From NCBI GenBank assembly GCA_947631525.1, contig CANRLQ010000001.1:1-35418 (forward strand): a stretch of 35,418 bases of DNA, given 5' to 3'. The notes below the pieces were generated by a model, which worked only from the letters and a program-made list of their open reading frames with translations, was not told the origin of the DNA and did not search any database. Below are positions 1 to 25,417 of the stretch, one piece after another (positions within the stretch are counted from its first letter, which is position 1; each line of letters opens with the position of its first letter). A program made the position numbers and the translations under genes. Source of the DNA: an uncultured Bacilli bacterium (GTDB taxonomy: Bacteria > Bacillota_I > Bacilli_A > RF39 > UBA660).

Positions 1-518
1 TCAATATCTTGACGTTCATATATTGGTAATATTGATTTTAATACTTTTTCTTGTTCAAATCTAAGTGGAAAAGCTCGCATATCCATTGCTTCTAGATAAC
101 TTTTTATTTGTAATTTTTTTGAATTAAGTTCATCTTCAGTATTTGCTGTTATCATAACATGCATTTGAAAATCAAATATTTTTGATTGACTTGCTGCTAA
201 TTGAGAAATAAATACTTCTAATGATTCATAATCTTGTCTAATTCTTTCTTGAATTGTTCTATCATTTTCCTCTTGATATCTTTGTTTTAAAGCATATATT
301 TCTTTGTTTAACATTTTACTAATAACAGAAAATGGAACAGGAATATGTTTCATTACAACTTTTATTCCAGAAATACTTGTTAAAGATGATAAATAACCTG
401 GTGCTATAAATCTAGGATAAGAAATAACTGATAAAATAGTTGCATATTTATCACTAATAATAAAGTGATTTGATTTAAATTCTAAACCTTTGGGTGCTAT
501 TTGTGTTCTTATATCCAT
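1..518 (-). CDS. VirB4/TrsE-type conjugative-transfer ATPase, N-proximal part (partial, continues past the left edge)
   Basis: Absent from the ORF track because no stop is reached. Hand translation from the ATG at 518-516 gives MDIRTQIAPKGLEFKSNHFIISDKYATILSVISYPRFIAPGYLSSLTSISGIKVVMKHIP..., the segment that precedes the NTPase domain in Gram-positive VirB4 homologues. I checked 421..518 codon by codon and found no stop; the rest was read less strictly. The start overlaps the upstream stop as TAATG, and the gene lies downstream of a VirB3-like gene. Confidence 0.55.
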   Translation of the reverse strand, partial: MDIRTQIAPKGLEFKSNHFIISDKYATILSVISYPRFIAPGYLSSLTSISGIKVVMKHIPVPFSVISKMLNKEIYALKQRYQEENDRTIQERIRQDYESLEVFISQLAASQSKIFDFQMHVMITANTEDELNSKKLQIKSYLEAMDMRAFPLRFEQEKVLKSILPIYERQDI

Positions 519-1066
519 TAGCCAATCACCCCTCCAAATGTAGTAGTTTGTCCACCATTTAAGAAGTTATCTAATATAATTCTTAAATCATCATTAGTAA
601 CCTGATGTGATGTTAAGCCAGCATTGGCAAAACTATTTATAAGTTGTCTTATTCTTTTATTTATTTTTTCATTATCTGATTCAGCAAATAACAAGAAATA
701 TTCTGTATCAACGATATTATTATTCATAAAACTATTTGCTTTATTGATATCTTCAATAATCATTTTTCTTTTTATTTGATCTTGGGTTGAATTAAATAAC
801 AACTGCAATTGTGATAGATAAACATTAATATCAACAGGCCTATCTGCAGATATTACCCAAAATTCATAATCTATCATATTATAAGCATTTTTTAAATTCG
901 AAATTATTGCATCTTGAGTTGTACGTTCAAGAATAAATAAATTTCTAGGTATAATTTTTATTCCAGTAACTTTTTTATTGTTATCAAGAACAATCATCCC
1001 ATTTGTTATACTTTTTACTGGTACAAATGAATTTGTATATTTACTACTATTTTTCGTCTGACTCAT
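518..1066 (-). CDS. conjugation protein resembling the extreme N-terminal domain of Gram-positive VirB4 (TcpF / Tn916 Orf16 type), here a separate ORF
   Basis: 182 aa. The stretch FVPVKSITNGMIVLDNNKKVTGIKIIPRNLFILERTTQDAIISNLKNAYN matches the pattern I associate with the start of Firmicute VirB4-like ATPases. It overlaps the PrgI-like ORF by 20 nt and couples to the next ORF by TAATG. Confidence 0.45.
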   Translation of the reverse strand: MSQTKNSSKYTNSFVPVKSITNGMIVLDNNKKVTGIKIIPRNLFILERTTQDAIISNLKNAYNMIDYEFWVISADRPVDINVYLSQLQLLFNSTQDQIKRKMIIEDINKANSFMNNNIVDTEYFLLFAESDNEKINKRIRQLINSFANAGLTSHQVTNDDLRIILDNFLNGGQTTTFGGVIG

Positions 1067-1364
1067 CTCTTAAACACCAACCCTTCCAAATAAATTTTTG
1101 TCTACTAGTAACAAATCTCCACGCTTCCATTATAACAGTCATAACGTTATGATAATTTGGAACGGGGAAAACCAAAAATCCAATTATTGAAGCAGGTGCT
1201 ATTGCTATAAGTGCCCATACAATATCACCTATAGGTAATACCATAACTAGTATTATACTAATAATAACACCTATTATAAATAAAACTAAATCAAATTTGT
1301 TAAAGATTCCTAAAAACAATAATGATTTTTTTGAGTTAGCTGGTATTAAATATGTATCTTTCAT
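1047..1364 (-). CDS. PrgI/VirB3-like small membrane protein
   Basis: 105 aa with two central TM helices (LVLFIIGVIISIILVMVL, WALIAIAPASIIGFLVF). It sits immediately upstream of the VirB4-like genes. RBS GGGGA lies before the ATG. Confidence 0.5.
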   Translation of the reverse strand: MKDTYLIPANSKKSLLFLGIFNKFDLVLFIIGVIISIILVMVLPIGDIVWALIAIAPASIIGFLVFPVPNYHNVMTVIMEAWRFVTSRQKFIWKGWCLRDESDEK

Positions 1365-1379
1365 TTATTTCATCCCCTT

Positions 1380-1877
1380 TTATCCTTTTTTACTTTGTTT
1401 GTCCAACATTTCATTGTATTTCTTTATATCTTTTGTATATGCATCAATATTTCTTTGAGATTGTACAGATGCACTAATTGCAGAATATATAGCATCGAAA
1501 TCGTCTTTTGTTAAACGTGTTCCCGAATTAGAACGAGAATAATCTGTAAATGATTTAAATTGATCTATAAAATCTTCATGTCGTGAATTGTTAATAATAT
1601 TAATTGCTTCAGATTTTTTATCATTATCTAAACTATTAGTCAAGTTAGCAAGAGTATTATTTAAAGTATTCATATTATTTTGTTCTCTAGTTAACATATT
1701 ATTTAATTTCTTTATTTCATTAGCAACTTCACTCGAAGTTCCAGAATCATTTTTAATTCTAGCAAAACTTGTCATCTTGTCGTAAAGTTCATCTTTAAGA
1801 GAGAAATCTTCTCTATAATTACGTTTTACAGCTGCTTCATCAGTTCCTTTTAACCCTGCTTGAATAGCTTTTGTCAA
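1380..1877 (-). CDS. coiled-coil N/K/E-rich protein, most likely the frame-shifted C-terminus of the VirB6-like gene
   Basis: The track start is a TTG with no RBS. The same frame is open upstream to 2045 and reads (L)IEVAKSKSEIEKHQEKINELENKRIAKHPGISAAGEIAYGF..., which continues the coiled coil that ends ORF 2023..3609. Confidence 0.5.
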   Translation of the reverse strand: MTKAIQAGLKGTDEAAVKRNYREDFSLKDELYDKMTSFARIKNDSGTSSEVANEIKKLNNMLTREQNNMNTLNNTLANLTNSLDNDKKSEAINIINNSRHEDFIDQFKSFTDYSRSNSGTRLTKDDFDAIYSAISASVQSQRNIDAYTKDIKKYNEMLDKQSKKG

Positions 1878-2022
1878 ATCTAAACTATCATTTCGATAAG
1901 CATTTGATGCACCTCTAGCAAAACCATATGCGATTTCTCCAGCAGCACTAATTCCAGGGTGCTTTGCAATTCGTTTATTTTCTAGTTCATTAATCTTTTC
2001 TTGATGTTTTTCTATCTCACTT

Positions 2023-3609
2023 TTAGATTTTGCAACTTCTATTAGCTACATCCTGTCTTTTAGCATTAGCAACAGCCTCTTGGGCATCAATTTCACCTTG
2101 TAATCTATCATATTCAGCAACATTTCCTTGCTGAGCTGCTATTGATTGTTGTACAATTAAATTACCTAATTGTGAAGTTGCTGCATTATATTCAGAAGTA
2201 GCAACATTTCTTGAATTTTTAGCTTCTAAATATCTATCAAGTGCATTCCTTCTATTCGTATTTATCTTGTCTATTTCTGCACGTTCAGCATTAATTTTAT
2301 TATTATTACTTCGTACTGCTAAACCATGAGCAATGGCAGAACCAGCTAATCCAACTCCTGCTCCAACAACACCCATAGTAGCATTAGATATTTGTCTTCC
2401 ACCAATAGCTTCAGTTTTTAGTTTTTTCAAAGGATTTATATTAAATGTACCATCCAATTTTAATCTAGGTATTAATGTTTCTAATAATTTAGGTACTTGT
2501 TTAACAAATATAAGAGCTCCAAGTAAGATAAATAAGCTTGTGTAGAAACCATTTTCTTGATTAGTTGATTGAATATCGGCCGCTAATTGTATAACATATA
2601 TAGCAAAATACAACGCTGCTAATCTTATAAACAAAGATAACCAAGTTTTTCCTACTTCAGTAGCCCAATTTTTAAACATATTATGTTTTGAATTATCAGG
2701 CTCTATATATGAAATAATTGGTATTGGTGCAATAATTTGTAAAGCCGCTAATTTTATACTTCGTACTGAAATATCTAAGGCAAAAGATAACAAAATTCCA
2801 CATAATATAACTCCAAATATTGTTGACAATATCCAATGATAATCAACTTGATAATCAACAAAGAAAGCATTTATTGCCGATCCGGTTCCTGGTGCTATGA
2901 CATCAATAATAGATGAGGAAACAGATACAATGGCATCTCCTGTAGAAGCAGGTGCAGTTATATTACCAATATTTAACATAGAATTTACTGTTTGATTACC
3001 AGTACTTGCGCTAGAACATAATACTCCATTAGTATTTATTTCAGTTAATCCTTCAGTTGTTATATCCCCATTAGAATCCCTAAATCTATTTAAATATCCA
3101 GCATCATATTGAAAAAATGGTCTAAAAGCTGCAAGAGATAAGAAATTAGCCGTACTAGTAGTTGTTACTGGTGTATCACAATATGGCGTCCAATATAGTT
3201 GATAACTACCTGTTTGGGTATTAGAATTAGTTGAACCTAAAATAAAGTTTCCCACTATATTATCATCTAATAATGCATTTTGAAAGTCACGTAAAAGATT
3301 AAAAACCCAAGGAAATGATATCAACATTACAAATACTAGTAATACATTAATAATGAATTTTTGAAAACCAACTTGAGCATCCATAAATTTATCAGGCTTA
3401 ACTAAATAATTTATAAATGAAAAACTCACTTTAAATAACATGAAAATACCAAGTGCTGAATATATTCTAGTTGTAAAATCATTAACATTTGACTGATTAA
3501 GAAATTCTAGTCTTGCTAAAGCATCAATCAAATTATATATAACTATTACAAAAGCATATATAAAACTATCAATTGCGGCAAAAAACCACTTTGTTGATAC
3601 TACTGTCAT
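2023..3609 (-). CDS. VirB6/TrbL-like polytopic membrane protein with a central extracytoplasmic domain and a C-terminal coiled coil
   Basis: 528 aa with multiple TM helices at both ends, a loop of about 130 aa (aa ~120-250) and a coiled-coil tail. It lies between pilin-like genes and VirB3/VirB4-like genes. Confidence 0.5.
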   Translation of the reverse strand: MTVVSTKWFFAAIDSFIYAFVIVIYNLIDALARLEFLNQSNVNDFTTRIYSALGIFMLFKVSFSFINYLVKPDKFMDAQVGFQKFIINVLLVFVMLISFPWVFNLLRDFQNALLDDNIVGNFILGSTNSNTQTGSYQLYWTPYCDTPVTTTSTANFLSLAAFRPFFQYDAGYLNRFRDSNGDITTEGLTEINTNGVLCSSASTGNQTVNSMLNIGNITAPASTGDAIVSVSSSIIDVIAPGTGSAINAFFVDYQVDYHWILSTIFGVILCGILLSFALDISVRSIKLAALQIIAPIPIISYIEPDNSKHNMFKNWATEVGKTWLSLFIRLAALYFAIYVIQLAADIQSTNQENGFYTSLFILLGALIFVKQVPKLLETLIPRLKLDGTFNINPLKKLKTEAIGGRQISNATMGVVGAGVGLAGSAIAHGLAVRSNNNKINAERAEIDKINTNRRNALDRYLEAKNSRNVATSEYNAATSQLGNLIVQQSIAAQQGNVAEYDRLQGEIDAQEAVANAKRQDVANRSCKI

Positions 3610-3625: not shown

Positions 3626-4666
3626 TTAATCTAGAAAACCACAAAATAAATCGGAACTACTAATACCTGTATCTAACATTAAATCAGTAACATTTACTAA
3701 AAATTCTAATAAAAATGGAACTAATAGAAATACTACAGCAACAACTAATCTTGTAGATACTTTTTTACCAGTTTCTTTCATTTTATCTTCTTCACCAGAA
3801 AATACAACACCTAAATAATCTGCAATACTTAAAACGATAACTAATATAGGAATTATATATCTAATAAGTTTTATAGCCCATGAAATCATTTTTCTAGTTT
3901 GGCTACCTTCTTTACCAAAAATATCACAATTTGCTGTGGAAGCTCCTCCACCATTTGCGGCCGCACCTTGATTTCCTGAAGGCTGATTTGCATCCGCACT
4001 TTTAGCTGCTGAAGATTGTTCTGCAACTACTCGTTGAGGTATTAATTGTTTAAAATTATTATCATTTGCCATGCCATCTCTATACCTAGTACTGTAGACC
4101 TTAGCCTCATTTCCATTAATAGGAACAAGCATGTTACATATAGGACATTTTGCTATTGAAAAAAATTTTTTTACACCATTACTTAAATTATTCATCGCAC
4201 TATCAATATATAAAGCAGGGCATAACCAACCATTACCATTAGGATTTGTTGGATCTCCTCTTAAATAAAAATCTTCTGCAAATACGCCTTGAGCAAATGC
4301 TTGACCACTATATATTCTTGTATTTTGATTATTGTTATAAGTTATAGTAACTGTTGATGACTTTATTTCACCTGATTCCTTTTCTTTAAGAAGCAAATTA
4401 TATTTTGTATTTGTATAACTTAATTTCATAAATAAACCATTTTTAATTGGTTCTACATCAATTTTCATTTCAACATAATCAAAAACATTATTAAAAATAT
4501 TCCAATCACGATTTGTTTTTTCAAATAATGTTTGTAAAACTGTTTTACTTATTACTGATTGCTCATATACACAATGAGTAACTTGTTCAGCCCTAACCTT
4601 TCTTATATCACTAAACATAAATAGACTAATAAGTAATATTGTTATATAAAATATACTTTTTTTCAT
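3626..4666 (-). CDS. secreted protein with a C-terminal VirB2-like pilin module (fusion)
   Basis: I prefer the start at ATG 4666 (RBS AGAGGTG), giving MKKSIFYITILLISLFMFSDIRKVRA (Sec signal). A domain of about 220 aa is followed by a low-complexity A/G/N linker. The tail IIPILVIVLSIADYLGVVFSGEEDKMKETGKKVSTRLVVAVVFLLVPF aligns by eye with the two small pilin-like proteins downstream. Confidence 0.55.
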   Translation of the reverse strand: MKKSIFYITILLISLFMFSDIRKVRAEQVTHCVYEQSVISKTVLQTLFEKTNRDWNIFNNVFDYVEMKIDVEPIKNGLFMKLSYTNTKYNLLLKEKESGEIKSSTVTITYNNNQNTRIYSGQAFAQGVFAEDFYLRGDPTNPNGNGWLCPALYIDSAMNNLSNGVKKFFSIAKCPICNMLVPINGNEAKVYSTRYRDGMANDNNFKQLIPQRVVAEQSSAAKSADANQPSGNQGAAANGGGASTANCDIFGKEGSQTRKMISWAIKLIRYIIPILVIVLSIADYLGVVFSGEEDKMKETGKKVSTRLVVAVVFLLVPFLLEFLVNVTDLMLDTGISSSDLFCGFLD

Positions 4667-4701
4667 ATATTGCACCTCTATTATCATATTTCTCTTTATA
4701 T

Positions 4702-5127: not shown

Positions 5128-5156
5128 AATAAGCCTCCTATATAAATTATATTAGT

Positions 5157-5184
5157 ATTATAACACTAAAAGAAAAAAAATCAA
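5157..5184 (-). promoter_or_regulatory. sigma-A-type promoter (TTGATT, 16-nt spacer, TGTTATAAT) for pilin-like gene 2
   Basis: The reverse complement of 5179..5184 is TTGATT, and of 5157..5165 is TGTTATAAT (extended -10). The -35 lies in the descending arm of the upstream terminator. Confidence 0.5.
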
Positions 5185-5200
5185 TATTAAATTGATTTTT
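5173..5200 (-). terminator. rho-independent terminator after pilin-like gene 1
   Basis: Perfect 10-bp stem AAAAATCAAT/ATTGATTTTT with a 5-nt loop and a T-run of 8 on the minus strand. It overlaps the stop at 5199..5201. Confidence 0.55.
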
Positions 5201-5652: not shown

Positions 5653-6636
5653 TTATGATAATCTAGTAAAACCTAATTTTATTAAAAAATCAACTAATTG
5701 TTCTTGACGACTTGCTCTTTCATCTAAAGGTGGCATATTATAAAATATTTTTACTCTAGATTCTGATTCAAAATCGTGAACATCTTTATTATTTAATAAA
5801 CTCTGATTTAAAATAACCTTTTTGTTTTTTAAATCATTTAATATTCTAGAATTTACTATCATTAATCTATTTAATTTAACCATTGAAGGTTCAATTAAAT
5901 AAATTACTTCAGTACATAATTCTTCAGCATTTTTACTATTATTAACATCTAATAGAATAATATCTTTATCAAGATTTTTATTAATAAGAGTTTTAATATT
6001 ACTATTAGTAACTGAAACTAACTCTCTATCATTAAAAAATCTAAAATCTGATTTTTCAACTTCCATAGCAACTACTGAATACTTAGTAGATAATTGTTTC
6101 TTCATCAAATACGTTAAAGTTGTAGCACCCGACTGTTTTGTAACATTTTTAATTCCTAATATTCTAGGTCCTGTTAAAGTTGGCTCACCTTCAATATATC
6201 TATCAACATAAACAGTTTCTGTTTTAACTTGCTGTGGCTGAACTGCATTTACAGGATTAATTATATGTAAATGAGCTACATCTCTATAACTATTAGGATT
6301 ATTATACAAATATAAAATACCATCAGCATTTGTAGTAAAATTATAAATACCCATCGATATTAAATTAGACATATATTGTGGTGATGTAGTATCAGATGAT
6401 TCATCTAATAACAAAATCACTTTTTCCATATCTAATGATAACGATAATTTCTGAATTGTATTAATATTTTTATAATCTTTTAGTGCTGTTATATCTAAAA
6501 TCATTCTTTGAAAAAAGAAATTTTTAAAATTTGCAACTAATTCATCAACATCAAACTGCCCATTCAACTCTTTTATTATTTCAATATCAAGGCTTTCAAG
6601 CATAGATTGATATTTGTTTGAAACAATTACATTCAC
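5653..6636 (-). CDS. TadZ/CpaE-like protein (N-terminal pseudo-receiver-like region plus degenerate ParA/MinD fold)
   Basis: 327 aa. RILGIKNVTKQSGATTLTYLMKKQL sits where ParA/MinD proteins carry KGGxGKTT, but the P-loop lysine is missing. DIILLDVNN is Walker-B-like. Its position at the end of the Tad gene set matches tadZ. Confidence 0.4.
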   Translation of the reverse strand: MNVIVSNKYQSMLESLDIEIIKELNGQFDVDELVANFKNFFFQRMILDITALKDYKNINTIQKLSLSLDMEKVILLLDESSDTTSPQYMSNLISMGIYNFTTNADGILYLYNNPNSYRDVAHLHIINPVNAVQPQQVKTETVYVDRYIEGEPTLTGPRILGIKNVTKQSGATTLTYLMKKQLSTKYSVVAMEVEKSDFRFFNDRELVSVTNSNIKTLINKNLDKDIILLDVNNSKNAEELCTEVIYLIEPSMVKLNRLMIVNSRILNDLKNKKVILNQSLLNNKDVHDFESESRVKIFYNMPPLDERASRQEQLVDFLIKLGFTRLS

Positions 6637-12286: not shown

Positions 12287-12304
12287 TTATATTTCCTCCT
12301 TTAC

Positions 12305-16021: not shown

Positions 16022-16035
16022 GTATAAATCACATC

Positions 16036-16689: not shown

Positions 16690-16721
16690 AAATTGCACCT
16701 CCATACTCTACCTTAATATAG

Positions 16722-16730
16722 ATTATAACA
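16722..16730 (-). promoter_or_regulatory. extended -10 element TGTTATAAT inside cassette A
   Basis: The reverse complement of 16722..16730 is TGTTATAAT. It lies in the 58-nt gap between the 524-aa gene and the FN3-like gene. Confidence 0.4.
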
Positions 16731-16762
16731 TATTTTTAAAAGAAAAGAAACTAAAATTATAA

Positions 16763-18337
16763 TTATTTTAATTTATATCTGTAAATATTATTTCTAATAT
16801 TAAAAATTAAAGTAATGTTATTTGCTTTTTCTATTTCTTTATAAATTTCAAAATATAAATTTGAATCATTAACCATTTTAGGTTTAATAGGTTTGATTGT
16901 TTGATTCATAATTTTAGTTTCACCATTTATTGTATACTCTATACTACCATATTGATATACTAAATTTTCCAATTTTGAAAAGGTTAGCGGTAAATCTAAT
17001 GAATCAGAATCTACCTCACCATCTAATTTTAAGATTGTTTTTTCATAATTATCTGTATAACTTGGTACTAAATATTCATGTGAATTATAGATTATATTAT
17101 TTATATAATAATTATATCCAACATCCATTCTAGGTGAAATACCATATGAATCTATATATATTTTAAGATCTTTTACCAATTGATTATTTATTTCTAAAGT
17201 TTTACCAATACTTGATTCCTTTTTGTTATTAGAATTAAAGCTTTGAGGTTTAATTCTAATATTAATATAATTATTATTATAATTAGCAAATTTTAAAGTC
17301 ATCTTTTTATTTTTGTATTTTTTTGGTATTTCATATACAAGTAAATATTCGTTTTCTGTTTGACCTTTTATTTCTTCATTATTATAAGTATTTCCAATAT
17401 CAATCAAGTCTTTTTTATATTTTGTTGTATGAACAAAATTAATATCATTTACATTAAGAACAAATCGCTCAGTATTTAAACTACCTCTTTTATTACTATT
17501 GTTTTTTAATTTGAATTTAACGGTAACTATATAATTATCTGTTATTTTTCTATTTTTGTAATCAACATTTGTTATATAAACTTGTTGAGGTGTAAAATTA
17601 AGTAAATCACAATTAACCGATTCACCTAATTTATGAGCTCTATTTTTAACAAAGAAATTAAAATAGATAAAAATTGATAAAACAATTATGGTAAACAACA
17701 CAATAATATTGATAATAAGTTTATTTTCTTTATAAATATATTTAGCATTTCTAAGTTGTCTTTTTATATTTCTTTTTGTTTTATTTGAATCATAGTCTAA
17801 CTCAAATTCAAATTCTTCATTATCTTTTTCTGATATTTCAAAATTCATTTCTTTATCAAAGTCAAATTTTTTAACATCAAATCCTAATGCTCTTACTACA
17901 AAGAAAATAGAACTAATTGTTTGAAGAAGAAATAATACCAAACATATATCATCTATAATTTTTATAACTCTTATATCTACAACACCAATTTCAAGTGTTT
18001 TACATACAGAATATATATATAAATATATAAGTAAAATAAAAACATAAATTATTATATTGAAAATATAATATTTAATTGGTTTTTCTTTCCAATGTAACAA
18101 ATATATAATTATTGATATTAAGATTATTACAAATATAGGAATGATAAATATTAATGAATTAAATAATTGTTTAGTTAAATTAAATACTGATATAATTGAA
18201 CTAGATTGTAAATATTCATTAAAAAAATTTAAAATTGTATTTGTTTTTGTTAATAGATAAACGCTTAATATAGTAAGTATTAAATGAATTATTTTAAAAT
18301 ATTTTATTAAAAATTTATAAGGTTTTCTTAATACCAC
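16763..18337 (-). CDS. 5-TM membrane protein with an acidic cytoplasmic loop and a ~295-aa ectodomain, cassette A
   Basis: 524 aa with a GTG start and RBS AGGAGGG. I predict four N-terminal TMs, the loop EEFEFELDYD, a fifth TM and a beta-rich C-terminal domain. It is a paralogue of 23834..25417. Confidence 0.65.
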   Translation of the reverse strand: MVLRKPYKFLIKYFKIIHLILTILSVYLLTKTNTILNFFNEYLQSSSIISVFNLTKQLFNSLIFIIPIFVIILISIIIYLLHWKEKPIKYYIFNIIIYVFILLIYLYIYSVCKTLEIGVVDIRVIKIIDDICLVLFLLQTISSIFFVVRALGFDVKKFDFDKEMNFEISEKDNEEFEFELDYDSNKTKRNIKRQLRNAKYIYKENKLIINIIVLFTIIVLSIFIYFNFFVKNRAHKLGESVNCDLLNFTPQQVYITNVDYKNRKITDNYIVTVKFKLKNNSNKRGSLNTERFVLNVNDINFVHTTKYKKDLIDIGNTYNNEEIKGQTENEYLLVYEIPKKYKNKKMTLKFANYNNNYINIRIKPQSFNSNNKKESSIGKTLEINNQLVKDLKIYIDSYGISPRMDVGYNYYINNIIYNSHEYLVPSYTDNYEKTILKLDGEVDSDSLDLPLTFSKLENLVYQYGSIEYTINGETKIMNQTIKPIKPKMVNDSNLYFEIYKEIEKANNITLIFNIRNNIYRYKLK

Positions 18338-18563: not shown

Positions 18564-18965
18564 TTAATAAGGAAGTTCTAAAATAGCATCTATTTTGTTA
18601 TCAATAGTAACTTCTACTATTTCATTAGCCGCATTAGTTGATTTTGTCGCTCTAACTTGCAAACTAACTTTAGGTGGATATTCACTAATATCATATATAT
18701 CAATATAGTAATCGTTAGATAAAGAAGCAACTTCTGAATATCTTCTAACAAAACTCTCAATAAATTTTTCTCTATTAATTTTAACATTTCCTGTATTTGT
18801 ATAATTAACTTTATCTATTGAATCATACATAGCTGCTTCAGTTATTTCTTTTATCAATGTATAATTTTGTTGATCAACATTTGTAACATTTTGAAAGAAA
18901 AATACAAACAATATGGAAATAATTCCTAGTATCAATATCATCGATCCCCAAAATGATTCTTTCAT
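18564..18965 (-). CDS. 133-aa prepilin-like / N-terminally anchored protein, cassette B
   Basis: MKESFWG is followed by SMILILGIISILFVFFF. It shares DIYDISEYPPKVSL and TIDNKIDAILE with 11885..12286. Confidence 0.6.
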   Translation of the reverse strand: MKESFWGSMILILGIISILFVFFFQNVTNVDQQNYTLIKEITEAAMYDSIDKVNYTNTGNVKINREKFIESFVRRYSEVASLSNDYYIDIYDISEYPPKVSLQVRATKSTNAANEIVEVTIDNKIDAILELPY

Positions 18966-18979
18966 TTACTCATCTCTCC

Positions 18980-21900
18980 TTAATTATAACAATTATAAAA
19001 ATCTTTTTCTTTAGATGTACTACTCAATCCATTACAATTACCATTTTTATTATTAAGATTTTTTGATAGTATATTGATTTTATAATCTGTTAATTCACCA
19101 TGTAACAATTTACTTATACAAGCTGAAGAATCACTACTATTTAAACATTTTAAGTCAAAATTATCATAACTATTCTTTTCATTGTATTTTCTTATTGTTT
19201 TTATATCTTTTGAAGTAAGTTTTATTGTATAAAGAGGATTTTTACTATAAATTTTGCTTCCTTTACTATTTCTAGAATTTAATATTTTTTCCTTTACATA
19301 TTGTGAATCCCAGTTACTTCCAGGATATCTTCCATACAAGCTTGTATTACTAAACTTATTTGTTTTTCCATTTGTTTGTAACATTCCAGGAAATGGATTA
19401 TCTAAATCAATTGTTCTAAAGACAATACTGCTATTATAATTTGTTGAACATATAGCAGGTTCACATTCTCTTAAAACTTTATATAGATTTGCTCTATCAA
19501 TCGAATTAATATTTTTAGCTAAATTATTATCAGGCATATATCCATAATTTCTAAGTTTATTTATAACACAAATTTTAGGGTCTCCTGTTAATATTTTGTC
19601 ATTTGGGCAAAAGAAATTAACATCGCAGAAAGTCAAATTTCCATCACAATATTTATATTTAATATTCAATCTATCAGTAGCAACTGCTTCATTTTCCCAT
19701 TTACAATCACCGATGCATGTATTTTCACAAACAGGAATTGTTATATCAGAATCACAATAAGTTGCCTGTAAATCTGCACAGCTTTTATCACTACAACTAA
19801 ATGGTAAAATTTTGTCATAGTTCTTAGTACCAGATGGACACTTACAAACATCGGTTGTTGTAATATATGGTGCTACTTCATAATTACATGTATAATTACC
19901 TTGATTTACAATATCACCAATAATATTTGATGTACCCAAGTTAAAAACCTTTAATTTTAATTCATAAATAGTTGGAAAATCATCAGTAGAAGTTGATATA
20001 ACACCTTTACCTCTATCAAAGGTATTTATGTTTGGATAAGTAAGTATTTCACCACTTATTCTATTATAATATCTATTTACATTTTCATTCAATTTATATG
20101 TTATAACTCTATTTACAGAAACATTTCTATCTGCTGTTGTAAAACCATTCCATCCATCTGTAAAATTAGTTAAATCTTTCGCAATATCCAAAGAACCTTT
20201 ATACCAATGTTTTGATTTTTCCTCATTTACTGTACTACCTGCTTCTATTTGAACCGAAGGATTTTGATTGTTATTGAAGAAATCGCTAGGAGTAAATTTA
20301 TAACTACGACAATCTCCATCAGCTGTACTTCCTTCTCTAATGATAATCTTACATTTTTCTTTTATATTTATTTGAAGTGGATATGTTCCATTTACTGTTG
20401 GCCATTCAAAATAATTTCCACGTGGTATTATTTTAGAAACATTACCTGGAAAACTTAGATTAACTGTCTCTAAACAATATATATCACAATTACCAATTGT
20501 TTTTACATGTCTACCATTATATTTTGATGAACCTTCCTCACATGTATTATCTTCCACTTTTACTGATTCTTCATTATATGAAGCTTCATTATTCTTATCA
20601 GTATTAACACAAACTAATGAATTTGTAAGTGACTTATTACTTAATTTAACATCAAAACAACTTATTGGGCAATATCTTTGCTTACATTCCAAACTTGCTT
20701 CATTTATATCTACAACATCATCATCTGTTGAAGCATTAAGCTTATTTTTTATACAATCTTGATAATCCTTATCAGTTCTTCTATGATATTTACCATAATC
20801 ATCAATCGTTGCACATGGTGCATAACAATTATCCACTTTACACATATCAAGTGCTAATTGTGGTTCTATACCTTTTTTAATATTATCTTTATAACAATCA
20901 CTTATATTAGTTTTATTATTTGGATCTGAAGCTACAGCTTCATCATTCATACCATAAACACAAGATTTACTTTCTGTACAAGTATCGGCTATACATATAT
21001 TCTTAGCATCATCAAAACTAGGTTCCTTAGAACAACATTGTCCATTTTTTGCCATAAATGCCCCTGTACATTTATTAGTATAGTTTTGATTAACTAGAAA
21101 GTATCCTCCTTTGCAAGATGGATTCCAATCCGCAGTTGTATCATTTATTGTACACTTAGTATTATTATCAGTCATATGATAACCAGCTGCACAATATAAT
21201 TTTGTATTATCATATGCATAACAATATGGATAAGCTCCATTTTTACCAACTGCATATCCTGGTGGACAAACAAATTGGTCAGTTCTATCCAGTATACATG
21301 TACGTGTCCCTGAGACAAAAGTATAACCTTGTGGACAATTAGGCTTTACCCTACAATAACCTGTATCTGAATTATATTCATATCCAGATGGGCATTTTCT
21401 TTTTGAAGCATTATCTTTATAACATGTTGTTCCACTTTTTTGCCATCCACTCGAGCAAGAATATGTACATGAAAGTTTAGTAGCATCCCAACTTGTTGAA
21501 TATGTTGTATGTGAACAACATCTATTATTAGAATTATCACCAGAATTATGACATAACTTTCTAGATACAGATCCCCCATTATATCCCGCTGCCGCACAAT
21601 TAGCATAAACTCCTGCTGAAACTGAATGATATGTTGTAGATGATGTTGTTTGATAACAGCTATTACCACTTTTGTTCCATCCACTTGCACATGAGCATGT
21701 TTGAGTAGCATTTTTTGTTTTTCTACAAGTTTTTGCAGAACTATTCCAAGAAAATCCATCACCATTACATGTTGGCTGTACTCTACACCAAGTATTATTG
21801 CTATTCCAGCTAGTTCCACTAGGACAAGTAGCTGTACTAGAATATCTACATGCTGTACCAAGATATTGACCACCACTATTACATGATACTAAATTATTTG

Positions 21901-22333
21901 TAATTAAACATGTCCCACCACCATTTACAGAAGCAAAAGAACCTGCACTACAATTTATATTAGTTTTACTTACACCAACACAAGTAGTTCCACTAAGTAC
22001 ATAAGCAGTTGATGGACAAAAATATTCTTTATCATACATAGTTACTGGTGGATTATTAAATTCTTCATCAACACAACTAGTTATATTTAATTCCGATTTT
22101 GTTTGTGTATCAGTACAAAATATTTGTGAAGTTTGTTCACATTCTTCAGAAGAGTCTCCTAACCATATTAGACCTACACCATAACCTTTACTGCTATCAA
22201 TCAAATTATCTAAAGAAGCAACCCCACTAACTGAACTTAAAGAAAATGAAGAAAATTGTGTTTTTTTAGAATCGTAATACATATAATGTGAAATAGCATC
22301 TACATTTAATTCAAAGTCACTTTCTTTCATCAA
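18980..22333 (-). CDS. giant cysteine-rich protein B, main body (the frame stays open upstream to 22432; its N-terminus is in ORF 22402..23082)
   Basis: 1117 aa from the track, with no signal peptide. I hand-counted about 71 Cys. It contains 13 C-x-x-G-aromatic...C repeats plus the shared blocks YNGRHVKTIGNCDIYCLETVNLSFPGNV, YTCNYEV and IVFRTIDLDNPFPG...RYPGSNW. Confidence 0.75.
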   Translation of the reverse strand: MMKESDFELNVDAISHYMYYDSKKTQFSSFSLSSVSGVASLDNLIDSSKGYGVGLIWLGDSSEECEQTSQIFCTDTQTKSELNITSCVDEEFNNPPVTMYDKEYFCPSTAYVLSGTTCVGVSKTNINCSAGSFASVNGGGTCLITNNLVSCNSGGQYLGTACRYSSTATCPSGTSWNSNNTWCRVQPTCNGDGFSWNSSAKTCRKTKNATQTCSCASGWNKSGNSCYQTTSSTTYHSVSAGVYANCAAAGYNGGSVSRKLCHNSGDNSNNRCCSHTTYSTSWDATKLSCTYSCSSGWQKSGTTCYKDNASKRKCPSGYEYNSDTGYCRVKPNCPQGYTFVSGTRTCILDRTDQFVCPPGYAVGKNGAYPYCYAYDNTKLYCAAGYHMTDNNTKCTINDTTADWNPSCKGGYFLVNQNYTNKCTGAFMAKNGQCCSKEPSFDDAKNICIADTCTESKSCVYGMNDEAVASDPNNKTNISDCYKDNIKKGIEPQLALDMCKVDNCYAPCATIDDYGKYHRRTDKDYQDCIKNKLNASTDDDVVDINEASLECKQRYCPISCFDVKLSNKSLTNSLVCVNTDKNNEASYNEESVKVEDNTCEEGSSKYNGRHVKTIGNCDIYCLETVNLSFPGNVSKIIPRGNYFEWPTVNGTYPLQINIKEKCKIIIREGSTADGDCRSYKFTPSDFFNNNQNPSVQIEAGSTVNEEKSKHWYKGSLDIAKDLTNFTDGWNGFTTADRNVSVNRVITYKLNENVNRYYNRISGEILTYPNINTFDRGKGVISTSTDDFPTIYELKLKVFNLGTSNIIGDIVNQGNYTCNYEVAPYITTTDVCKCPSGTKNYDKILPFSCSDKSCADLQATYCDSDITIPVCENTCIGDCKWENEAVATDRLNIKYKYCDGNLTFCDVNFFCPNDKILTGDPKICVINKLRNYGYMPDNNLAKNINSIDRANLYKVLRECEPAICSTNYNSSIVFRTIDLDNPFPGMLQTNGKTNKFSNTSLYGRYPGSNWDSQYVKEKILNSRNSKGSKIYSKNPLYTIKLTSKDIKTIRKYNEKNSYDNFDLKCLNSSDSSACISKLLHGELTDYKINILSKNLNNKNGNCNGLSSTSKEKDFYNCYN
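21026..22018 (-). repeat. coding array of about 13 cysteine-bounded C-x-x-G-[YWF] modules (EGF / ephrin-receptor-like in look)
   Basis: Examples are CPSGTSWNSNNTWC, CNGDGFSWNSSAKTC, CASGWNKSGNSC, CSSGWQKSGTTC, CPSGYEYNSDTGYC, CPQGYTFVSGTRTC, CPPGYAVGKNGAYPYC, CAAGYHMTDNNTKC and CKGGYFLVNQNYTNKC. The array is absent from paralogue A. Confidence 0.7.
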
Positions 22334-22401
22334 ATAAGCTAATTCAGTTGGTGTACCAAAATAATATTTTTTTTCGGAATTAGAACTACTATTATATCCG
22401 A

Positions 22402-23082
22402 TTAAATTAATGGTTCTACTAATATATAATAATCATTTATACAATAATTAGATAAATCTCTATTAAAAGTTTGTTTTACATATAATTTTATACTGGTTTG
22501 ATTATAATTACCTTCTTTATCATAAACTATAGAATCAAAATATTTTATAACACTACTCCAATCTATAGAATTATTTTTATAATTTAAAGTAATACCTGTA
22601 GGTAATTTAGAAATATTATTATATGAATCTAATGCACTAACACCTTTTTCTTTATAACCATTAAAAATATTACTAGTATCTAATGTTAATTTTGATTTTT
22701 GACCAGATATATTATAATATACATTTTGAGTTTTTGATTTTTCATAATAATAATCCTGGCTATATCCAAATTGATTACCAAATGCTGAAACTAAACTTAC
22801 TCTAAATCCTAAAGCATTAACACTTTGTATCCACTCATTCGTTTTACTTGAATCCATATTAGTTACTGGGGAATTTGAAGTACCAATATTTAATTTATAT
22901 GGATCATTACTTTTTTCTGTCGATTCACTATCTTTTACATCATCTGATCTATTTGTTTCAGTCTTTTCTTCTCTATATAAAATTGAATCAATTTTATAAT
23001 TAGTACTTATATTGAAACTATATAAAGATATGACAAGAATAAAACAAAAATACAAAGTTAAGATTGTTAATAGTTTCTTCAT
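22402..23082 (-). CDS. N-terminal fragment of giant protein B (signal peptide or anchor plus first domain)
   Basis: The N-terminus is MKKLLTILTLYFCFILVISLYSF. The C-terminal DYYILVEPLI aligns with GYRIVIEPVV of protein A (aa ~152-161). The next frame continues LIGYNSSSNSEKKYYFGTPTEL, matching MNGNSGTIYYDTIKNV in A. Confidence 0.65.
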   Translation of the reverse strand: MKKLLTILTLYFCFILVISLYSFNISTNYKIDSILYREEKTETNRSDDVKDSESTEKSNDPYKLNIGTSNSPVTNMDSSKTNEWIQSVNALGFRVSLVSAFGNQFGYSQDYYYEKSKTQNVYYNISGQKSKLTLDTSNIFNGYKEKGVSALDSYNNISKLPTGITLNYKNNSIDWSSVIKYFDSIVYDKEGNYNQTSIKLYVKQTFNRDLSNYCINDYYILVEPLI

Positions 23083-23091
23083 TGTTACCTC

Positions 23092-23739
23092 CTACAGAAT
23101 TCTATCTTTTTGATCAAGCTTATAAATAATAATAACTAAAGAAATTATAATAAATGGAAGAAAAATAAAATAATAACTAGTATAAATTTTTATTAAATAA
23201 TATCTAACTTTCTGTAATAATGTTTCTGTTTCTTCAGGTTGTTCTTCTATACTAGGTTTTATACTTTCTTTGTATTCATCAACTTGCTTTTCAAATTTGT
23301 CTAAACTGATATTAACTTCTTGCCATTTTTGACATAATTTATATTTTTCAATTCCATTACATAATTCATTTTTATAATATTTATTATAATTGGGAAATTT
23401 GACATGTATTGTTCTAACTTTTCTATCACTACATACATTTGAAGGATATACATTAAAAACATACTCCTTACCAGATTTAAAATTATTTATAGTTAAATTA
23501 TCTCCCTTATAATATAAATTTCCATCTGAAGTATTTTCTATAACAAACCTACCATATAAATTGTTAAATGTTATATTAAAAATAGCTGTATCATTACTTT
23601 CTTTATAAGTATAATAATAATTTATGTTATTTGATAATGTTACGTAATTATTAAGCATATCATCTGAACAATAAGCCTTTATCCTAGATGGAAATAAAAT
23701 AACTATCAACAAAAAGCTTAAAAAATATACTTTTTTCAT
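23092..23739 (-). CDS. secreted FN3-like protein with a C-terminal TM anchor, cassette B
   Basis: I prefer the ATG at 23739 (RBS GAAGGA), because the -10 at 23772 makes the track GTG at 23763 implausible. It starts MKKVYFLSFLLIVILFPSRIKA, contains LTINNFKSGKEYVFNVYPS, and carries the TM anchor YYFIFLPFIIISLVIIIY. Confidence 0.6.
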   Translation of the reverse strand: MKKVYFLSFLLIVILFPSRIKAYCSDDMLNNYVTLSNNINYYYTYKESNDTAIFNITFNNLYGRFVIENTSDGNLYYKGDNLTINNFKSGKEYVFNVYPSNVCSDRKVRTIHVKFPNYNKYYKNELCNGIEKYKLCQKWQEVNISLDKFEKQVDEYKESIKPSIEEQPEETETLLQKVRYYLIKIYTSYYFIFLPFIIISLVIIIYKLDQKDRIL

Positions 23740-23771
23740 TTTATCAAATCCTTCGTATCCCACTATAATTT

Positions 23772-23780
23772 ATTATAACA
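23772..23780 (-). promoter_or_regulatory. extended -10 element TGTTATAAT inside cassette B
   Basis: The reverse complement of 23772..23780 is TGTTATAAT, immediately downstream of a strong terminator. Confidence 0.45.
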
Positions 23781-23790
23781 AAAAAGTAAT

Positions 23791-23828
23791 AAAAAAAAAA
23801 TACAATTTGGAGTTTAAATTGTATTTTT
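23791..23828 (-). terminator. strong rho-independent terminator after the 527-aa membrane protein gene
   Basis: Perfect 13-bp stem (aaaaatacaattt / aaattgtattttt) with a 7-nt loop, followed by about T10 on the minus strand. It starts 5 nt after the TGA at 23834. Confidence 0.7.
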
Positions 23829-23833
23829 TACGT

Positions 23834-25417
23834 TCATTTTACTTTATACCTATATATATCATTTCTTATATTAAAATTCAATGTAATAGAATCGGCTTTT
23901 TCTATCTCTTTGTTTACTTCTATATAAAACTCATTTTCATAATTTATTTTAGTAGGGTTAACTCTCCTAATTGTTGAGTTAAAAATTTTTGTTTCACCGT
24001 TTATTTTATACTCTATAGTAACAAAATAATTAATAAAATTATATAAATTTTTTAAATTTGGATTTTTATTATCGCCATCATAAACAACATTACCAACTAA
24101 TTTCATAATAGTTTTTTCATAATTATCTGTATAGCTTGGTACTAAATATTCATATGATTCATACATAATACCATCTAATGATTTAAAATCATAATAAACT
24201 GGCATTTTACTATTTATTTCAACTGAACTAATATTAATAGTTGCATTATTAACAATATCATTATTTATAACTAATTTATCATTTAATTCTACTTCTTTAT
24301 TAACACTTTGAATATTTAATTTTTTTGGATTAATATCTACTTTTATTTTTTTATTACTTCCAATATTATATATAAGTACCATTTCTTTATCAACATACTG
24401 ATTAGGAATTTCAAATACCATTATATAATCACTATAATGTTTCATATCAATATTTTGATCTTTATAAATATTTCCTATATCTAATAAGTCATTAGAGTAT
24501 TTTTCAGTATGATTAAAAGGTATGTTATTTACTAGTAATTGAAATTTTGATTGACTTAAGTAACTATCATTTGAATATTTACTTATTGCTTCCAATCTAA
24601 CTACTACAAGTGTATTATTTGTTATTATATTTTGATCATATTTTTGATTTGTTATAAAGGCATCATCAACTTTAATATTTAATGTACCTATATTAAAAAC
24701 TTCACCAACTTTATAGACCTTATTAATCACATTAGAATATAAATAAATAGATACCCCTATAACAATTATAAAAATTAAAGCCCCTGTTCTTATAAAAAAA
24801 CGATTTTCTTTATATACATACTTAATATTTCTGATATTTCTTTTTATATTTCTTTTTGCTTTATTAGTATCAACACTAACATCAAATTCAAATTCTTCAC
24901 TTTCTGTCCTAGAAATATCTAATTCTAAATCTTTACCAAAATTAAATTTTTTAACATCAAATCCAAGTGCTCTTAATATAAAGAAAATAGCACTTATAGT
25001 TTGAAGAATAAATAATATTAGTGATAAATCATCAATTGCTTTTAGTATTCTTATATCAACTACACCATTTTCAAGTATATTACATATAGAATATATGTAC
25101 ATATAACAACCTATAATTGATATATAAACAACCATGTTAAAAATATAAAAATGTATAGGTTTATGCTTCCATTTTAATAAATATATAATCATAGCAATTA
25201 AAATTATTACAAAAATAGGAATAATAAATAATAATGGATTAAATAATTGTTCTGTTAAATTAGATGTCGATATCAATGAACTAGATGTTGCATATTCATT
25301 AAAAAATGATAGAATATTATTTGTTTTTATAACCAAATAAATACTAAGTATAGTTAGTATTAAATGAATAAATCTAAAATTTTTAATCAGAATTTTATAT
25401 GGTTTTTTTAGTACCAT
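23834..25417 (-). CDS. 5-TM membrane protein with an acidic cytoplasmic loop and a ~295-aa ectodomain, cassette B
   Basis: 527 aa with RBS GGGGGA. The N-terminal 230 aa are about two-thirds identical by eye to 16763..18337. It shares EYLVPSYTDNYEKTI and the tail NIRN.IYRYK.K. Confidence 0.65.
   Translation of the reverse strand: MVLKKPYKILIKNFRFIHLILTILSIYLVIKTNNILSFFNEYATSSSLISTSNLTEQLFNPLLFIIPIFVIILIAMIIYLLKWKHKPIHFYIFNMVVYISIIGCYMYIYSICNILENGVVDIRILKAIDDLSLILFILQTISAIFFILRALGFDVKKFNFGKDLELDISRTESEEFEFDVSVDTNKAKRNIKRNIRNIKYVYKENRFFIRTGALIFIIVIGVSIYLYSNVINKVYKVGEVFNIGTLNIKVDDAFITNQKYDQNIITNNTLVVVRLEAISKYSNDSYLSQSKFQLLVNNIPFNHTEKYSNDLLDIGNIYKDQNIDMKHYSDYIMVFEIPNQYVDKEMVLIYNIGSNKKIKVDINPKKLNIQSVNKEVELNDKLVINNDIVNNATINISSVEINSKMPVYYDFKSLDGIMYESYEYLVPSYTDNYEKTIMKLVGNVVYDGDNKNPNLKNLYNFINYFVTIEYKINGETKIFNSTIRRVNPTKINYENEFYIEVNKEIEKADSITLNFNIRNDIYRYKVK

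Follow-up and report, generated by a model that had tools for sequence, protein, structure and literature searches.

The stretch of DNA considered here, a window of 35,418 nucleotides (nt) from an uncultured Bacilli bacterium (GenBank assembly GCA_947631525.1, contig CANRLQ010000001.1), contains a block of about 25 kb in which genes of a type IV secretion system (T4SS) are joined to those of a Tad-like filament module and to two cassettes encoding giant proteins. With a probability of roughly 60%, we read the block as the chromosomal counterpart of the Gram-positive conjugation-type T4SS of the pXO2-like/pBMB67 kind, coupled to a divergent Tad-like filament module. Gene content, synteny, distribution and homology with plasmid tra regions establish that the T4SS core and the filament-like module are inherited together, on conjugative plasmids and on these chromosomes. 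The plasmid arrangement itself is known already. What appears to be new is the clade-wide chromosomal version, in whose examined stretches no relaxase was detected, and the recognition of the plasmid 'VirB11' region as a filament-type module.

The window has a G+C content of about 25%, and every open reading frame (ORF) across 1-29232 lies on the minus strand, in agreement with an earlier reading made from the letters alone (the sequence-only reading), which had described a block on a single strand. In the direction of transcription the block comprises two cassettes (m524, m222, giant and DUF5411 proteins), then a CpaB-like protein, a T2SSE ATPase, two polytopic proteins (B and C), a Flp-like protein, two pseudopilin-like proteins and a TadZ-like protein, followed by two small VirB2-like hairpin proteins, a 353-amino-acid (aa) hairpin protein, a VirB6-like protein, a VirB3-like protein and a split VirB4 (Table 1). 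The earlier reading had given this order correctly, including three VirB2-like hairpin genes (the two small ones and the 353-aa protein with its C-terminal hairpin), and also the junction with ordinary genes on the right, where Sir2 and a RumA-type methyltransferase follow from 25516 on. The intergenic gaps, however, which it put at 0-20 nt, range from overlaps to 226 nt. The left edge of the window cuts the operon inside virB4; in relatives the operon continues past position 1.

Only three families in the block pass Pfam thresholds, namely T2SSE, DUF5411 and TrbL_4. The matches of window proteins to CpaB/RcpC, T4SS_pilin and TraC are all sub-threshold, and B, C, the TadZ-like, Flp-like and pseudopilin-like proteins, m524, m222 and both giants have no Pfam or NCBIfam match. 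The searches with profile hidden Markov models (HMMs) that the sequence-only reading had proposed as a check gave the three families named and left its TadB, TadC, TadZ, Flp and pseudopilin assignments without a family. With so few families above threshold, many gene names rest on size, topology and position, while the layout itself is right.

Table 1. Genes and cassettes of the block, listed from the left end of the window
Feature	Positions	Strand	Basis or remark
VirB4 body (B4c), first 172 aa	3..518	-	runs off the left window end
VirB4 N-terminal part (B4n), 182 aa	518..1066	-	stop codon shared with the following ORF's start (TAATG)
VirB3/PrgI-like small membrane protein, 105 aa	1047..1364	-	position, size, family HMM
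VirB6/TrbL-like polytopic protein	1380..3609	-	frame-split: 528 aa (2023-3609) and coiled-coil tail (ORF 1380-1877)
Secreted protein, 353 aa, Cys motifs, C-terminal VirB2-like two-helix hairpin	3626..4687	-	hairpin match
Two paralogous small hairpin proteins, 118 and 114 aa	4771..5543	-	VirB2/T4SS-pilin-like topology
TadZ-like protein, 327 aa, degenerate P-loop region	5653..6636	-	family HMM link only
Two paralogous pseudopilin-like proteins (ps1/ps2), 151 and 139 aa	6654..7541	-	N-terminal motif
Flp-like small pilin candidate, 77 aa	7565..7798	-	N-terminus and hydrophobic helix
Polytopic protein C, 262 aa	7939-8727	-	directly after B; candidate TadB/TadC-type platform protein
Polytopic protein B, 300 aa	8727-9629	-	directly after ATPase; candidate TadB/TadC-type platform protein
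T2SSE-family secretion ATPase (TadA/CpaF/VirB11-like)	9642..11001	-	split here: 140 aa and 331 aa
CpaB/RcpC-like (SAF-type) protein, 277 aa	11001..11834	-	sub-threshold family matches and family HMM
Cassette 1	11885..18337	-	m524 16763-18337, m222 16036-16704, G1 12305-16021, DUF5411 11885-12286
Cassette 2	18564..25417	-	m524 23834-25417, m222 23092-23763, G2 22402-23082 and 18980-22333, DUF5411 18564-18965

Related loci on gut chromosomes and conjugative plasmids

Relatives were found by scanning one genome per GTDB species with the N-terminal part of VirB4. At least 219 species representatives, belonging to uncultured gut Bacilli/Mycoplasmatota, encode a relative of this protein, and the best 80 of the 219 loci were inspected (labelled L with a number where single loci have to be told apart). 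They come from metagenome-assembled genomes (MAGs) labelled as uncultured Bacilli, Tenericutes or Mollicutes, from human, mouse, rabbit, ruminant and chicken guts, and include Acholeplasma sp. CAG:878 and Candidatus Fimihabitans. Family scans covered one representative locus gene by gene and ten atypical ORFs; the rest was matched by homology only. The order common to the 80 loci, cpaB-A-B-C-flp-ps1-ps2-Z-pilin(s)-p353-VirB6-VirB3-VirB4n-VirB4c, is nearly invariant, a conservation far beyond chance. The Tad-like genes adjoin the T4SS genes in 50 of the 55 species with enough flank, and the block is one conserved operon rather than an accidental neighbourhood. As the Tad-like genes, the T4SS genes and the giant cassettes form one unit kept across hundreds of species, a joint function is likely, and the earlier suggestion that the parts act together has the support of this comparative evidence.

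The motor proteins are 68-85% identical to those of the related locus L002 (ATPase 84%, B 80%, VirB4 80%, CpaB-like 70%), compared with only 33-39% for the VirB6-like protein, m524, m222 and the giant. For B and C the identities to L002-L004 are 80% and 68%, with medians over the 80 loci of 75% and 68%. The same gene order, with one cassette, was found on contigs of 0.2-1.05 Mb, and since the contigs reach 1.05 Mb the locus is chromosomal. Beyond the operon's end, 51 of 63 loci have rhodanese or RmuC housekeeping genes, in many cases separated from it by a DedA/VTT gene. These flanks, together with the failure to recognise a relaxase or integrase in the genes scanned, fit vertical inheritance at a fixed site and not a mobile island. 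A prophage origin was set aside because the contigs are chromosomal (up to 1 Mb) and the family-scanned genes match conjugation, pilus or housekeeping families.

Among plasmids, a tblastn search with VirB4 led to pBMB67 of Bacillus thuringiensis and its relatives. In pBMB67 the order relaxase-VirD4-x-TrbL-PrgI-227aa-VirB4 is followed a few kb on by 851aa-134aa-SAF-AAA-T2SSE-305aa-244aa-89aa-DUF4320-129aa. In the pXO2-like plasmid pBT9727 one strand carries 1426-aa giant-124-51-127-T2SSE-277-248-120-91-TrbC/VirB2-664-VirD4-1121aa-86-65-DUF5592-222-VirB4-lysozyme/C40. HMMs built from the gut-species families were compared with the proteins of both plasmids (Table 2); those of m524, m222, the giants' C-terminal domain, the Flp-like protein, ps1 and the VirB2-like proteins gave no link to either.

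Table 2. Matches of gut-species family HMMs among the proteins of two Bacillus thuringiensis plasmids (E-values)
Family HMM	pBMB67	pBT9727	Matched gene
ATPase	2e-38	5.5e-41	
B	1e-12	3e-7	gene after T2SSE ATPase
C	1.5e-14	3e-8	second gene after T2SSE ATPase
CpaB-like (SAF)	7.5e-34	none significant	SAF/RcpC protein
DUF5411	2e-6	4e-4	
TadZ-like	2.6e-4	none	AAA_31 ATPase
ps2	3.7e-5	none	DUF4320
VirB3	3e-6	none	PrgI family
VirB4 N-part	8e-23	none	227-aa protein upstream of VirB4
VirB4 body	7e-91	4e-38	
VirD4	4e-89	8e-71	

The plasmids pBT9727, pAW63 and pBMB67 share with the gut locus the T2SSE ATPase ('VirB11'), two polytopic proteins, an upstream DUF5411-like protein and, heading the region, a giant surface protein; also shared are PrgI/VirB3, VirB4 with its separate N-part, a VirD4 of the CD1115 type and a cell-wall hydrolase. 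pBMB67 additionally shares SAF/CpaB, the ParA-type ATPase and DUF4320, and in pBT9727 the gene order is closely similar, on one strand. The plasmids differ in having a MOBP relaxase and replication and partition genes, whereas the locus here is chromosomal, vertically inherited and without a recognised relaxase. Further, identities between locus and plasmid proteins are only 21-33%, and VirD4 stands at the operon end in the gut locus.

Both pAW63 and pBT9727 are conjugative plasmids (PMC1196294, PMC9673590). The pAW63 paper of 2005 listed the same gene run and named the ATPase VirB11 (PMC1196294); a 2022 review of conjugation in the Bacillus cereus group does not use the words pilus, pilin or Tad (PMC9673590). 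Similarly, a tad locus follows VirB4/TcpC-like genes on Cutibacterium acnes plasmids (PMC5696575). The 98-kb plasmid CP074574.1 of Mycoplasmatota strain zrk4 (L087), typed as 'non-mobilizable', carries VirB6/VirB3/VirB4 and then a canonical Tad set (SAF-AAA-CpaF-295aa-T2SSF (Pfam-positive)-Flp (GSPSLEY)-...-1650-aa giant), and is a further independent case of the T4SS-Tad-giant association. The sequence-only reading had not recognised the arrangement and had stated that Gram-positive conjugation systems are not known to build a Tad-type filament. To take the arrangement as unknown is wrong, and the second statement is not supported, given the homologues in the tra regions of pBT9727, pAW63 and pBMB67 and the tad genes beside VirB4 on C. 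acnes and Mycoplasmatota plasmids. No description of the present system was found in the open-access literature. A partial likeness was published by Miller et al. (2022), who predicted, in Roseburia, Ruminococcus and Eubacterium, a 'secretion-related operon' that encodes CpaF, PilC/GspF, DUF5411 and an internalin-like protein (PMC9523054). There too the neighbours of DUF5411 are an ATPase of CpaF type, a platform protein and a large protein of the cell surface; that operon differs in its occurrence in Clostridia, its eight to nine genes and its status as a prediction only, with T4SS genes not reported (PMC9523054).

Compared with Tad/Flp systems (type IVc; Aggregatibacter tad, Caulobacter cpa), the locus has the same CpaF/TadA-type ATPase followed by two polytopic proteins of ~260-300 aa. 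Also in common are a CpaB-like protein and a ParA-like relative of TadZ, together with a single very small candidate pilin and a pair of pseudopilin-like proteins of ~140 aa. It differs in the place of the TadZ-like gene after the pseudopilins, in its fusion with a T4SS in one operon and in having no secretin (none is expected in a monoderm), as well as in the missing T2SSF signature and G/XXXXEY motif and the failure to recognise a prepilin peptidase at the locus, taken up below. The T4SS core also resembles that of the integrative and conjugative elements (ICEs) of Mycoplasma, whose models (Mbov_0397 VirB4 and the Mbov_0396/MMCAP2_0566 membrane protein) are the best NCBIfam matches for VirB4 and the VirB6-like protein, all with scores below curated cut-offs; NCBI titles and taxonomy put several of the related genomes in Tenericutes/Mycoplasmatota. 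The mycoplasma elements are mobile, with a DDE transposase, and to our knowledge they have no Tad-like module or giant cassettes. In function the nearest analogue is the IncI1 plasmid R64, in which an I-type T4SS is accompanied by a thin pilus of type IVb, which carries variable PilV adhesins and stabilises mating (Kim and Komano 1997, listed as reference 91 in PMC4027160). The likeness lies in a conjugative element that carries a type IV filament beside its T4SS for mating contact, with a variable adhesin. The differences are that R64 is Gram-negative, that its pilus is of type IVb and not Tad-like, and that variation comes from a shufflon rather than from gene cassettes.

Components of the secretion system, the Tad-like module and the cassettes

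On the T4SS side, B4c is 77-82% identical to 594-aa proteins of relatives. These full-length relatives match AAA_10, P-loop_TraG and DUF87 and, in NCBIfam, VirB4_plasma (the Mycoplasma ICE model; 1.3e-110) and CD1110 (2e-52). The split of VirB4 is natural, being found in all 80 related loci; relatives of B4n match TraC-like PF26593, and the window B4n aligns with positions 97-276 of the Mycoplasma ICE VirB4 model (4.7e-15). The locus thus has the VirB4 ATPase of a monoderm conjugative T4SS. The VirB3-like protein has no Pfam match; its family HMM finds the 'PrgI family mobile element protein' of pBMB67 (Table 2) and a counterpart on the zrk4 plasmid (3e-11). The VirB6-like protein matches TrbL_4 at 2.2e-6 (27.7 bits against a cut-off of 27) and, weakly, NCBIfam models of Mycoplasma ICE transmembrane proteins. 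We take both VirB6/TrbL and VirB3/PrgI to be present on results that are marginal and in agreement with gene position. As for pilin candidates, residues 243-330 of the 353-aa protein, which has no Pfam/NCBIfam match, resemble a small pilin-like gene of L002 (7e-8). The two small hairpin proteins are 53% identical to each other, occur in one to three copies in relatives and reach T4SS_pilin PF18895 at E=0.06 only; pBT9727 has an annotated TrbC/VirB2 gene at the analogous place, to which the VirB2-like family HMM gave no link.

The remaining T4SS parts lie beyond the left edge. In relatives the region left of position 1, whose inspection the sequence-only reading had advised, holds VirB4 (594 aa), then large peptidoglycan hydrolases, either one or two, followed by a protein of ~250 aa and by VirD4. 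The hydrolases of this VirB4-VirD4 interval (SpoIID, CHAP, glucosaminidase+C39-like, M23+3D) provide the VirB1 analogue. VirD4 was found downstream of VirB4 in 61 of 63 relatives and matches T4SS-DNA_transf (4e-58) and conju_CD1115 (314 bits against a curated cut-off of 250), so that the earlier reading saw no coupling protein because the window stops short of it. Looked up exactly, the VirB3-like protein of the window was found only on a 911-bp contig, in which the left flank is not readable. The earlier observation that neither relaxase nor integrase is visible stands: family scans of the window, of each gene in the representative locus and of the ten atypical ORFs recognised neither, the other unassigned ORFs of the 80 loci being unscanned. 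Of the two elements of self-transmissibility, the relaxase is therefore missing from what was recognised; for oriT, no search was made.

Within the filament module the ATPase matches PF00437 (T2SSE) at 1.5e-24 and qualifies as a TadA/CpaF secretion ATPase. A total of 7556 proteins match at E<=1e-10, the top 120 are 82-88% identical, and homologues in 'Bacilli bacterium' MAGs are named TadA, CpaF or VirB11 by their sources. Intact homologues have 370-500 aa. The C-terminal third (9642-9950) is a long, Q/N-rich, low-complexity tail, and it is mainly through this tail that homologue size varies. The CpaB-like protein scores below threshold against both TIGR03177 pilus_cpaB (6.6e-7; 28.8 bits against a cut-off of 71) and RcpC (0.0045), and for its L088 orthologue RcpC was recorded at E<=1e-5. 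The TadZ-like protein has no Pfam, NCBIfam or PDB match; the ParA/MinD-type ATPase of pBMB67 that its HMM finds sits between SAF and T2SSE.

A HMMER search with B against 1.84 billion representatives gave 272 matches, and ten distant full-length ones are without a Pfam domain. PF00482 (T2SSF) was matched by none of the window proteins, the ten distant homologues or the plasmid homologues. By hhalign, B and C are not significantly alike (probability 16%), nor is either significantly similar to the Pfam-positive T2SSF protein of the zrk4 plasmid, comparisons of low power because the alignments are shallow and the templates single sequences. PDB sequence-profile searches with alignments of B, C, the TadZ-like and CpaB-like proteins, DUF5411 and the giants' C-terminal domain yielded nothing meaningful. 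The AlphaFold model of B (pLDDT 80.8) has one sensible PDB match by Foldseek, the EpsF cytoplasmic domain 3c1q_B (probability 0.95, TM 0.63 over 121 columns, rmsd 3.9, E=1.2).

The small proteins share their N-termini. In ps1 and ps2, which are 31% identical, the motif M[KR][EQ]xxG followed by ~22 hydrophobic residues is conserved in 57-60 orthologues, and the Flp-like protein, which has no family match, retains MKEAAGEAN(M/L)TV and a hydrophobic helix in 49 orthologues, with conserved Cys at the C-terminus. A class-III-like leader (short M-K/R-E/Q-x-x-G, ~22 hydrophobic residues) is therefore common to the Flp-like, ps1 and ps2 families, and DUF5411 has a looser version, MKESFW(G/A/L). Judged by sequence and model, the module is best described as Tad-like, that is, a probable divergent type IV filament module, and we have not filed it as a member of the Tad family. 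In several species (L009:1222-3702; also L017-L020, L022, L029, L100 and L106) the tadC-like and flp-like genes are separated by an inserted gene for a membrane protein of ~800 aa from the YfhO family (4.9e-134). Since YfhO proteins are presumably GT-C-type glycosyltransferase-like, the insertion hints at glycosylation of the small pilin in those species.

Each cassette encodes m524, a multi-pass membrane protein of 524-527 aa, m222 (222 aa, with signal peptide, fn3-like part and C-terminal anchor), a giant (G1 with 1238 aa and 51 Cys; the main G2 ORF with 1117 aa) and a 133-aa protein. The latter matches Pfam DUF5411 (PF17424) with 164.6 and 156.1 bits against a cut-off of 30 (E 1e-46 to 1e-48; cassette 1: 1.5e-48), so one cassette family already has a name. 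The sequence-only reading had not recognised the cassette proteins; the giants have no Pfam or PDB match. Cassettes 1 and 2 are 51% identical in m524, 41% in m222, 28-31% in the giant and 70% in DUF5411, and are old duplicates. The four-gene order ahead of the cpaB-like gene also occurs in L002-L004 and in many metagenome loci. In a survey of 40 metagenome loci of >=9 kb, out of 80 anchored on DUF5411, m524-m222-giant-DUF5411 directly before the cpaB-like gene was the common operon head, with variable content: some loci lack cassette genes altogether, some have m524 alone or m524-m222 with the giant missing, and others carry from one to three giants. No other locus examined has a second DUF5411 or a second m524.

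The giants have signal peptides, 3-6% Cys, hypervariable bodies and a shared, conserved C-terminal domain of ~170 aa (...IVYRxIDLxxPFPG...RxPGxNW...LTxxDIKxIRxYN...). A word-indexed search with the G1 C-terminus gave no match, and one with the alignment gave 8 fragments only. Cys motifs recur in predicted extracellular parts of several proteins (7565-7798, 4771-5543, 3626-4687, 12305-16021, 18980-22333): the Flp-like C-terminus reads cC…GG.W..g.C…c, the VirB2-like proteins end in CxxCFINxxxC and the giants contain 51-71 Cys. On the surface of an anaerobic Gram-positive cell such Cys richness is uncommon, and it points to disulfides or metal sites.

Proposed mechanism and alternatives

As we picture it, the T4SS channel would consist of the usual monoderm parts, VirD4, split VirB4, VirB6, VirB3, VirB2-like proteins and cell-wall hydrolases, and the filament module of the secretion ATPase, two platform-like proteins, CpaB/SAF, the ParA-like TadZ relative and small prepilin-like proteins including DUF5411. 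The ATPase and platform would build a short filament or pseudopilus from Flp-like and pseudopilin-like subunits; the filament, with m524/m222, would display or anchor the variable giant Cys-rich proteins and so bring about contact with a target cell. The hydrolases would then open the wall, and VirD4/VirB4 would drive the substrate through the VirB6 channel. The substrate is most likely DNA, and we rank donor-type transfer first, since the VirD4 belongs to a conjugal family and tra genes are the nearest relatives. What we infer is that a filament forms, that it displays the giants, what the substrate is and in which direction it moves; a position of the giants at the filament tip would be pure inference. 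The locus looks domesticated, given the absence of a relaxase or integrase from the stretches examined and a chromosomal site that stays the same throughout a large clade; on the chromosome the machine may serve to mobilise elements in trans, to exchange chromosomal DNA, to bring in DNA or to deliver proteins, or it may have some other contact-dependent role.

Several observations weigh against this proposal. B and C lack a T2SSF signature by Pfam, NCBIfam, PDB profile search and hhalign, and the Foldseek match (E=1.2) is their only support. The canonical Flp G/XXXXEY motif, present in the Flp of the zrk4 plasmid, is absent from the Flp-like protein, none of whose 49 orthologues has E-Y at +5/+6; with these two sequence tests failed, the names tadB, tadC and flp say more than the evidence does. 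No A24 prepilin peptidase (TadV/CpaA) was recognised among the window ORFs or the family-scanned ORFs of related loci, where most unassigned ORFs are unscanned; one could be encoded elsewhere in the genome. (As a hidden peptidase m524 was considered, having one invariant Asp in a transmembrane helix, but it has no A24-like motifs and no claim is made.) The best NCBIfam matches of an intact ATPase orthologue, VirB11 (6.6e-34) and the 'TadA family conjugal transfer-associated ATPase' (3.2e-29), both lie below cut-off, and scores this similar tell against a Tad-like identity of the module. Giant and filament are linked by gene adjacency only, and the C-terminal domain of the giants gave an unusable AlphaFold model (pLDDT 44.5). 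DNA as the substrate is unproven, with no relaxase recognised at the locus, and knowledge of the pAW63 tra region is homology-based, according to the review of the group (PMC9673590). Finally, in five of the 55 species (L031, L033, L048, L067, L071) Lon, DnaK/PepF or FtsX permease/histidine-kinase genes precede the T4SS genes in place of the Tad-like set, from which it follows that the two modules are separable; in L033 only the TadZ-like gene stays with the T4SS genes.

Some of these observations would suit a single T4SS whose ATPase is of the VirB11 type and which makes no Tad-like filament. The ATPase and its partners would then assist the assembly of VirB2-like pilin or gate the channel, and the 'Flp' and 'pseudopilin' ORFs would be among the usual small membrane proteins of a T4SS. 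The slightly better VirB11 score, the VirB11 annotation in pAW63 (PMC1196294), the missing T2SSF signal, the non-canonical Flp motif and the lack of a recognised prepilin peptidase at the locus all lean that way. Nevertheless, the TadA-family model scores nearly as well, the model of B matches a GspF/EpsF platform domain, and the class-III-like leader occurs in three families and more loosely in DUF5411. CpaB/RcpC/SAF and a ParA-type TadZ relative belong to Tad and not to VirB systems, and the Mycoplasmatota plasmid has canonical Flp, Pfam-positive T2SSF and CpaF directly beside VirB4. We consider a T4SS of this plain kind unlikely. Much the same low odds apply to a machine for DNA uptake or exchange, serving competence or nucleotide scavenging, with a filament that binds DNA or cells and a T4SS core that takes DNA in, as in Helicobacter ComB and archaeal Ced. 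Transformation of Micrococcus luteus depends on Tad loci (cited in PMC5696575), and so does the uptake of DNA by Liberibacter (PMC8513845). The fixed chromosomal site, the failure to recognise a relaxase or integrase in the loci examined, the uncultured, gut-restricted lineage titled Tenericutes/Mollicutes-like and a weak NCBIfam CedD match of VirB4 (4.4e-13) would all be in keeping with such a role. It is opposed by the conjugal VirD4 (CD1115, above the curated cut-off) kept in nearly all loci, and by closest homologues that are donor-side tra genes of conjugative plasmids. We know of no CD1115-like coupling protein in ComB or Ced.

It could also be that two independent systems, one an adhesion pilus of Tad-like type that bears giant adhesins, the other a T4SS, have come to lie next to each other. 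The five species without adjacent Tad-like genes can be read in this way, as can the Clostridia operons with DUF5411, CpaF and PilC-type genes, for which a T4SS is not mentioned (PMC9523054), and the authors of the C. acnes plasmid study treated the tad and conjugation loci as separate functions (PMC5696575). Such independence seems very unlikely in view of the one-strand adjacency, with mostly short gaps or overlapping stop and start codons, in the other 50 species, and of an association that recurs on three unrelated plasmid backbones. Further, pBT9727 has its Tad-like genes interleaved with the T4SS set, the giant standing on one side of them and VirB2/VirD4/VirB4 on the other, and in L033 the TadZ-like gene has stayed with the T4SS.

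A conjugation-type T4SS coupled to a Tad-like filament module thus remains our preferred reading. A bolder form of it, which we put forward tentatively and hold to be possible rather than probable, is that a plasmid-type conjugation machine with its Tad-like filament was domesticated clade-wide as a core chromosomal organelle that works without a dedicated relaxase and in which arrays of fast-evolving giant Cys-rich proteins set partner specificity. If so, its uses could be routine exchange or import of chromosomal DNA or contact-dependent delivery to neighbours, and the filament module would be the missing mating-pair-formation device of one class of Gram-positive conjugative plasmids. How Gram-positive donors find and hold recipients without a classical sex pilus is poorly understood, and the locus and its plasmid relatives point to a concrete contact device, in that one class of monoderm T4SS is stably tied to a type-IV-filament-like module and large variable surface proteins. 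A test organism is at hand, as pAW63 and pBT9727 are conjugative in cultivable Bacillus thuringiensis. Conserved in more than 200 abundant uncultured gut species, among which its motor proteins are 70-85% identical, a machine of ~25-30 kb in which no relaxase was detected is probably important to their lifestyle, and may bear on gene flow, DNA acquisition or cell-cell interaction. The giants and pilins also offer surface markers for studying or isolating these organisms.

Disrupted genes and neighbouring sequence

Three genes of this copy, those of the ATPase, the VirB6-like protein and the second giant, are disrupted relative to intact relatives. In the ATPase gene (10579-10660) ~23 nt that encode 'LDIHDFLI' in homologues are missing just upstream of Walker A, at a site that is not a homopolymer; an exact-pattern scan of metagenome contigs for the deletion junction, in which the intact allele was also allowed, gave no match. 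The frame of the VirB6-like gene changes near 2024-2060: in tblastn, the orthologues of L014 and L021 (782 and 740 aa) align at 2023-3609 and 1380-2024 in different frames, and the 165-aa ORF at 1380-1877 is the detached coiled-coil tail and no separate gene. Similarly, the ORF at 22402-23082 (226 aa, with signal peptide) resembles a detached N-terminus of G2, one frame away from the main G2 ORF, which has no signal peptide. At their junction the neighbouring frame reads through (…EPLI* versus …YNSSSNSEKKYYFGT…), resembling G1 residues 155-180. The disruptions are either real changes or assembly errors; unless they are the latter, the copy in this genome may be inactive, as three of its components are frame-disrupted.

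The two cassettes are separated by a non-coding gap of 226 nt (18338-18563), the longest of the locus, which may hold an internal promoter. Two ORFs in the right flank have no Pfam match, one at 26239-27384 (381 aa) and one at 33042-33902 (286 aa, rich in Lys, Glu and Asp, with a C-terminal transmembrane helix). Between them, on the plus strand at 29326-33041, lies a gerA, gerC, gerB-type operon for a spore germination receptor (GerA 1e-153), from which the host can be taken to be a walled spore former, despite the Tenericutes/Mollicutes labels on related MAGs.

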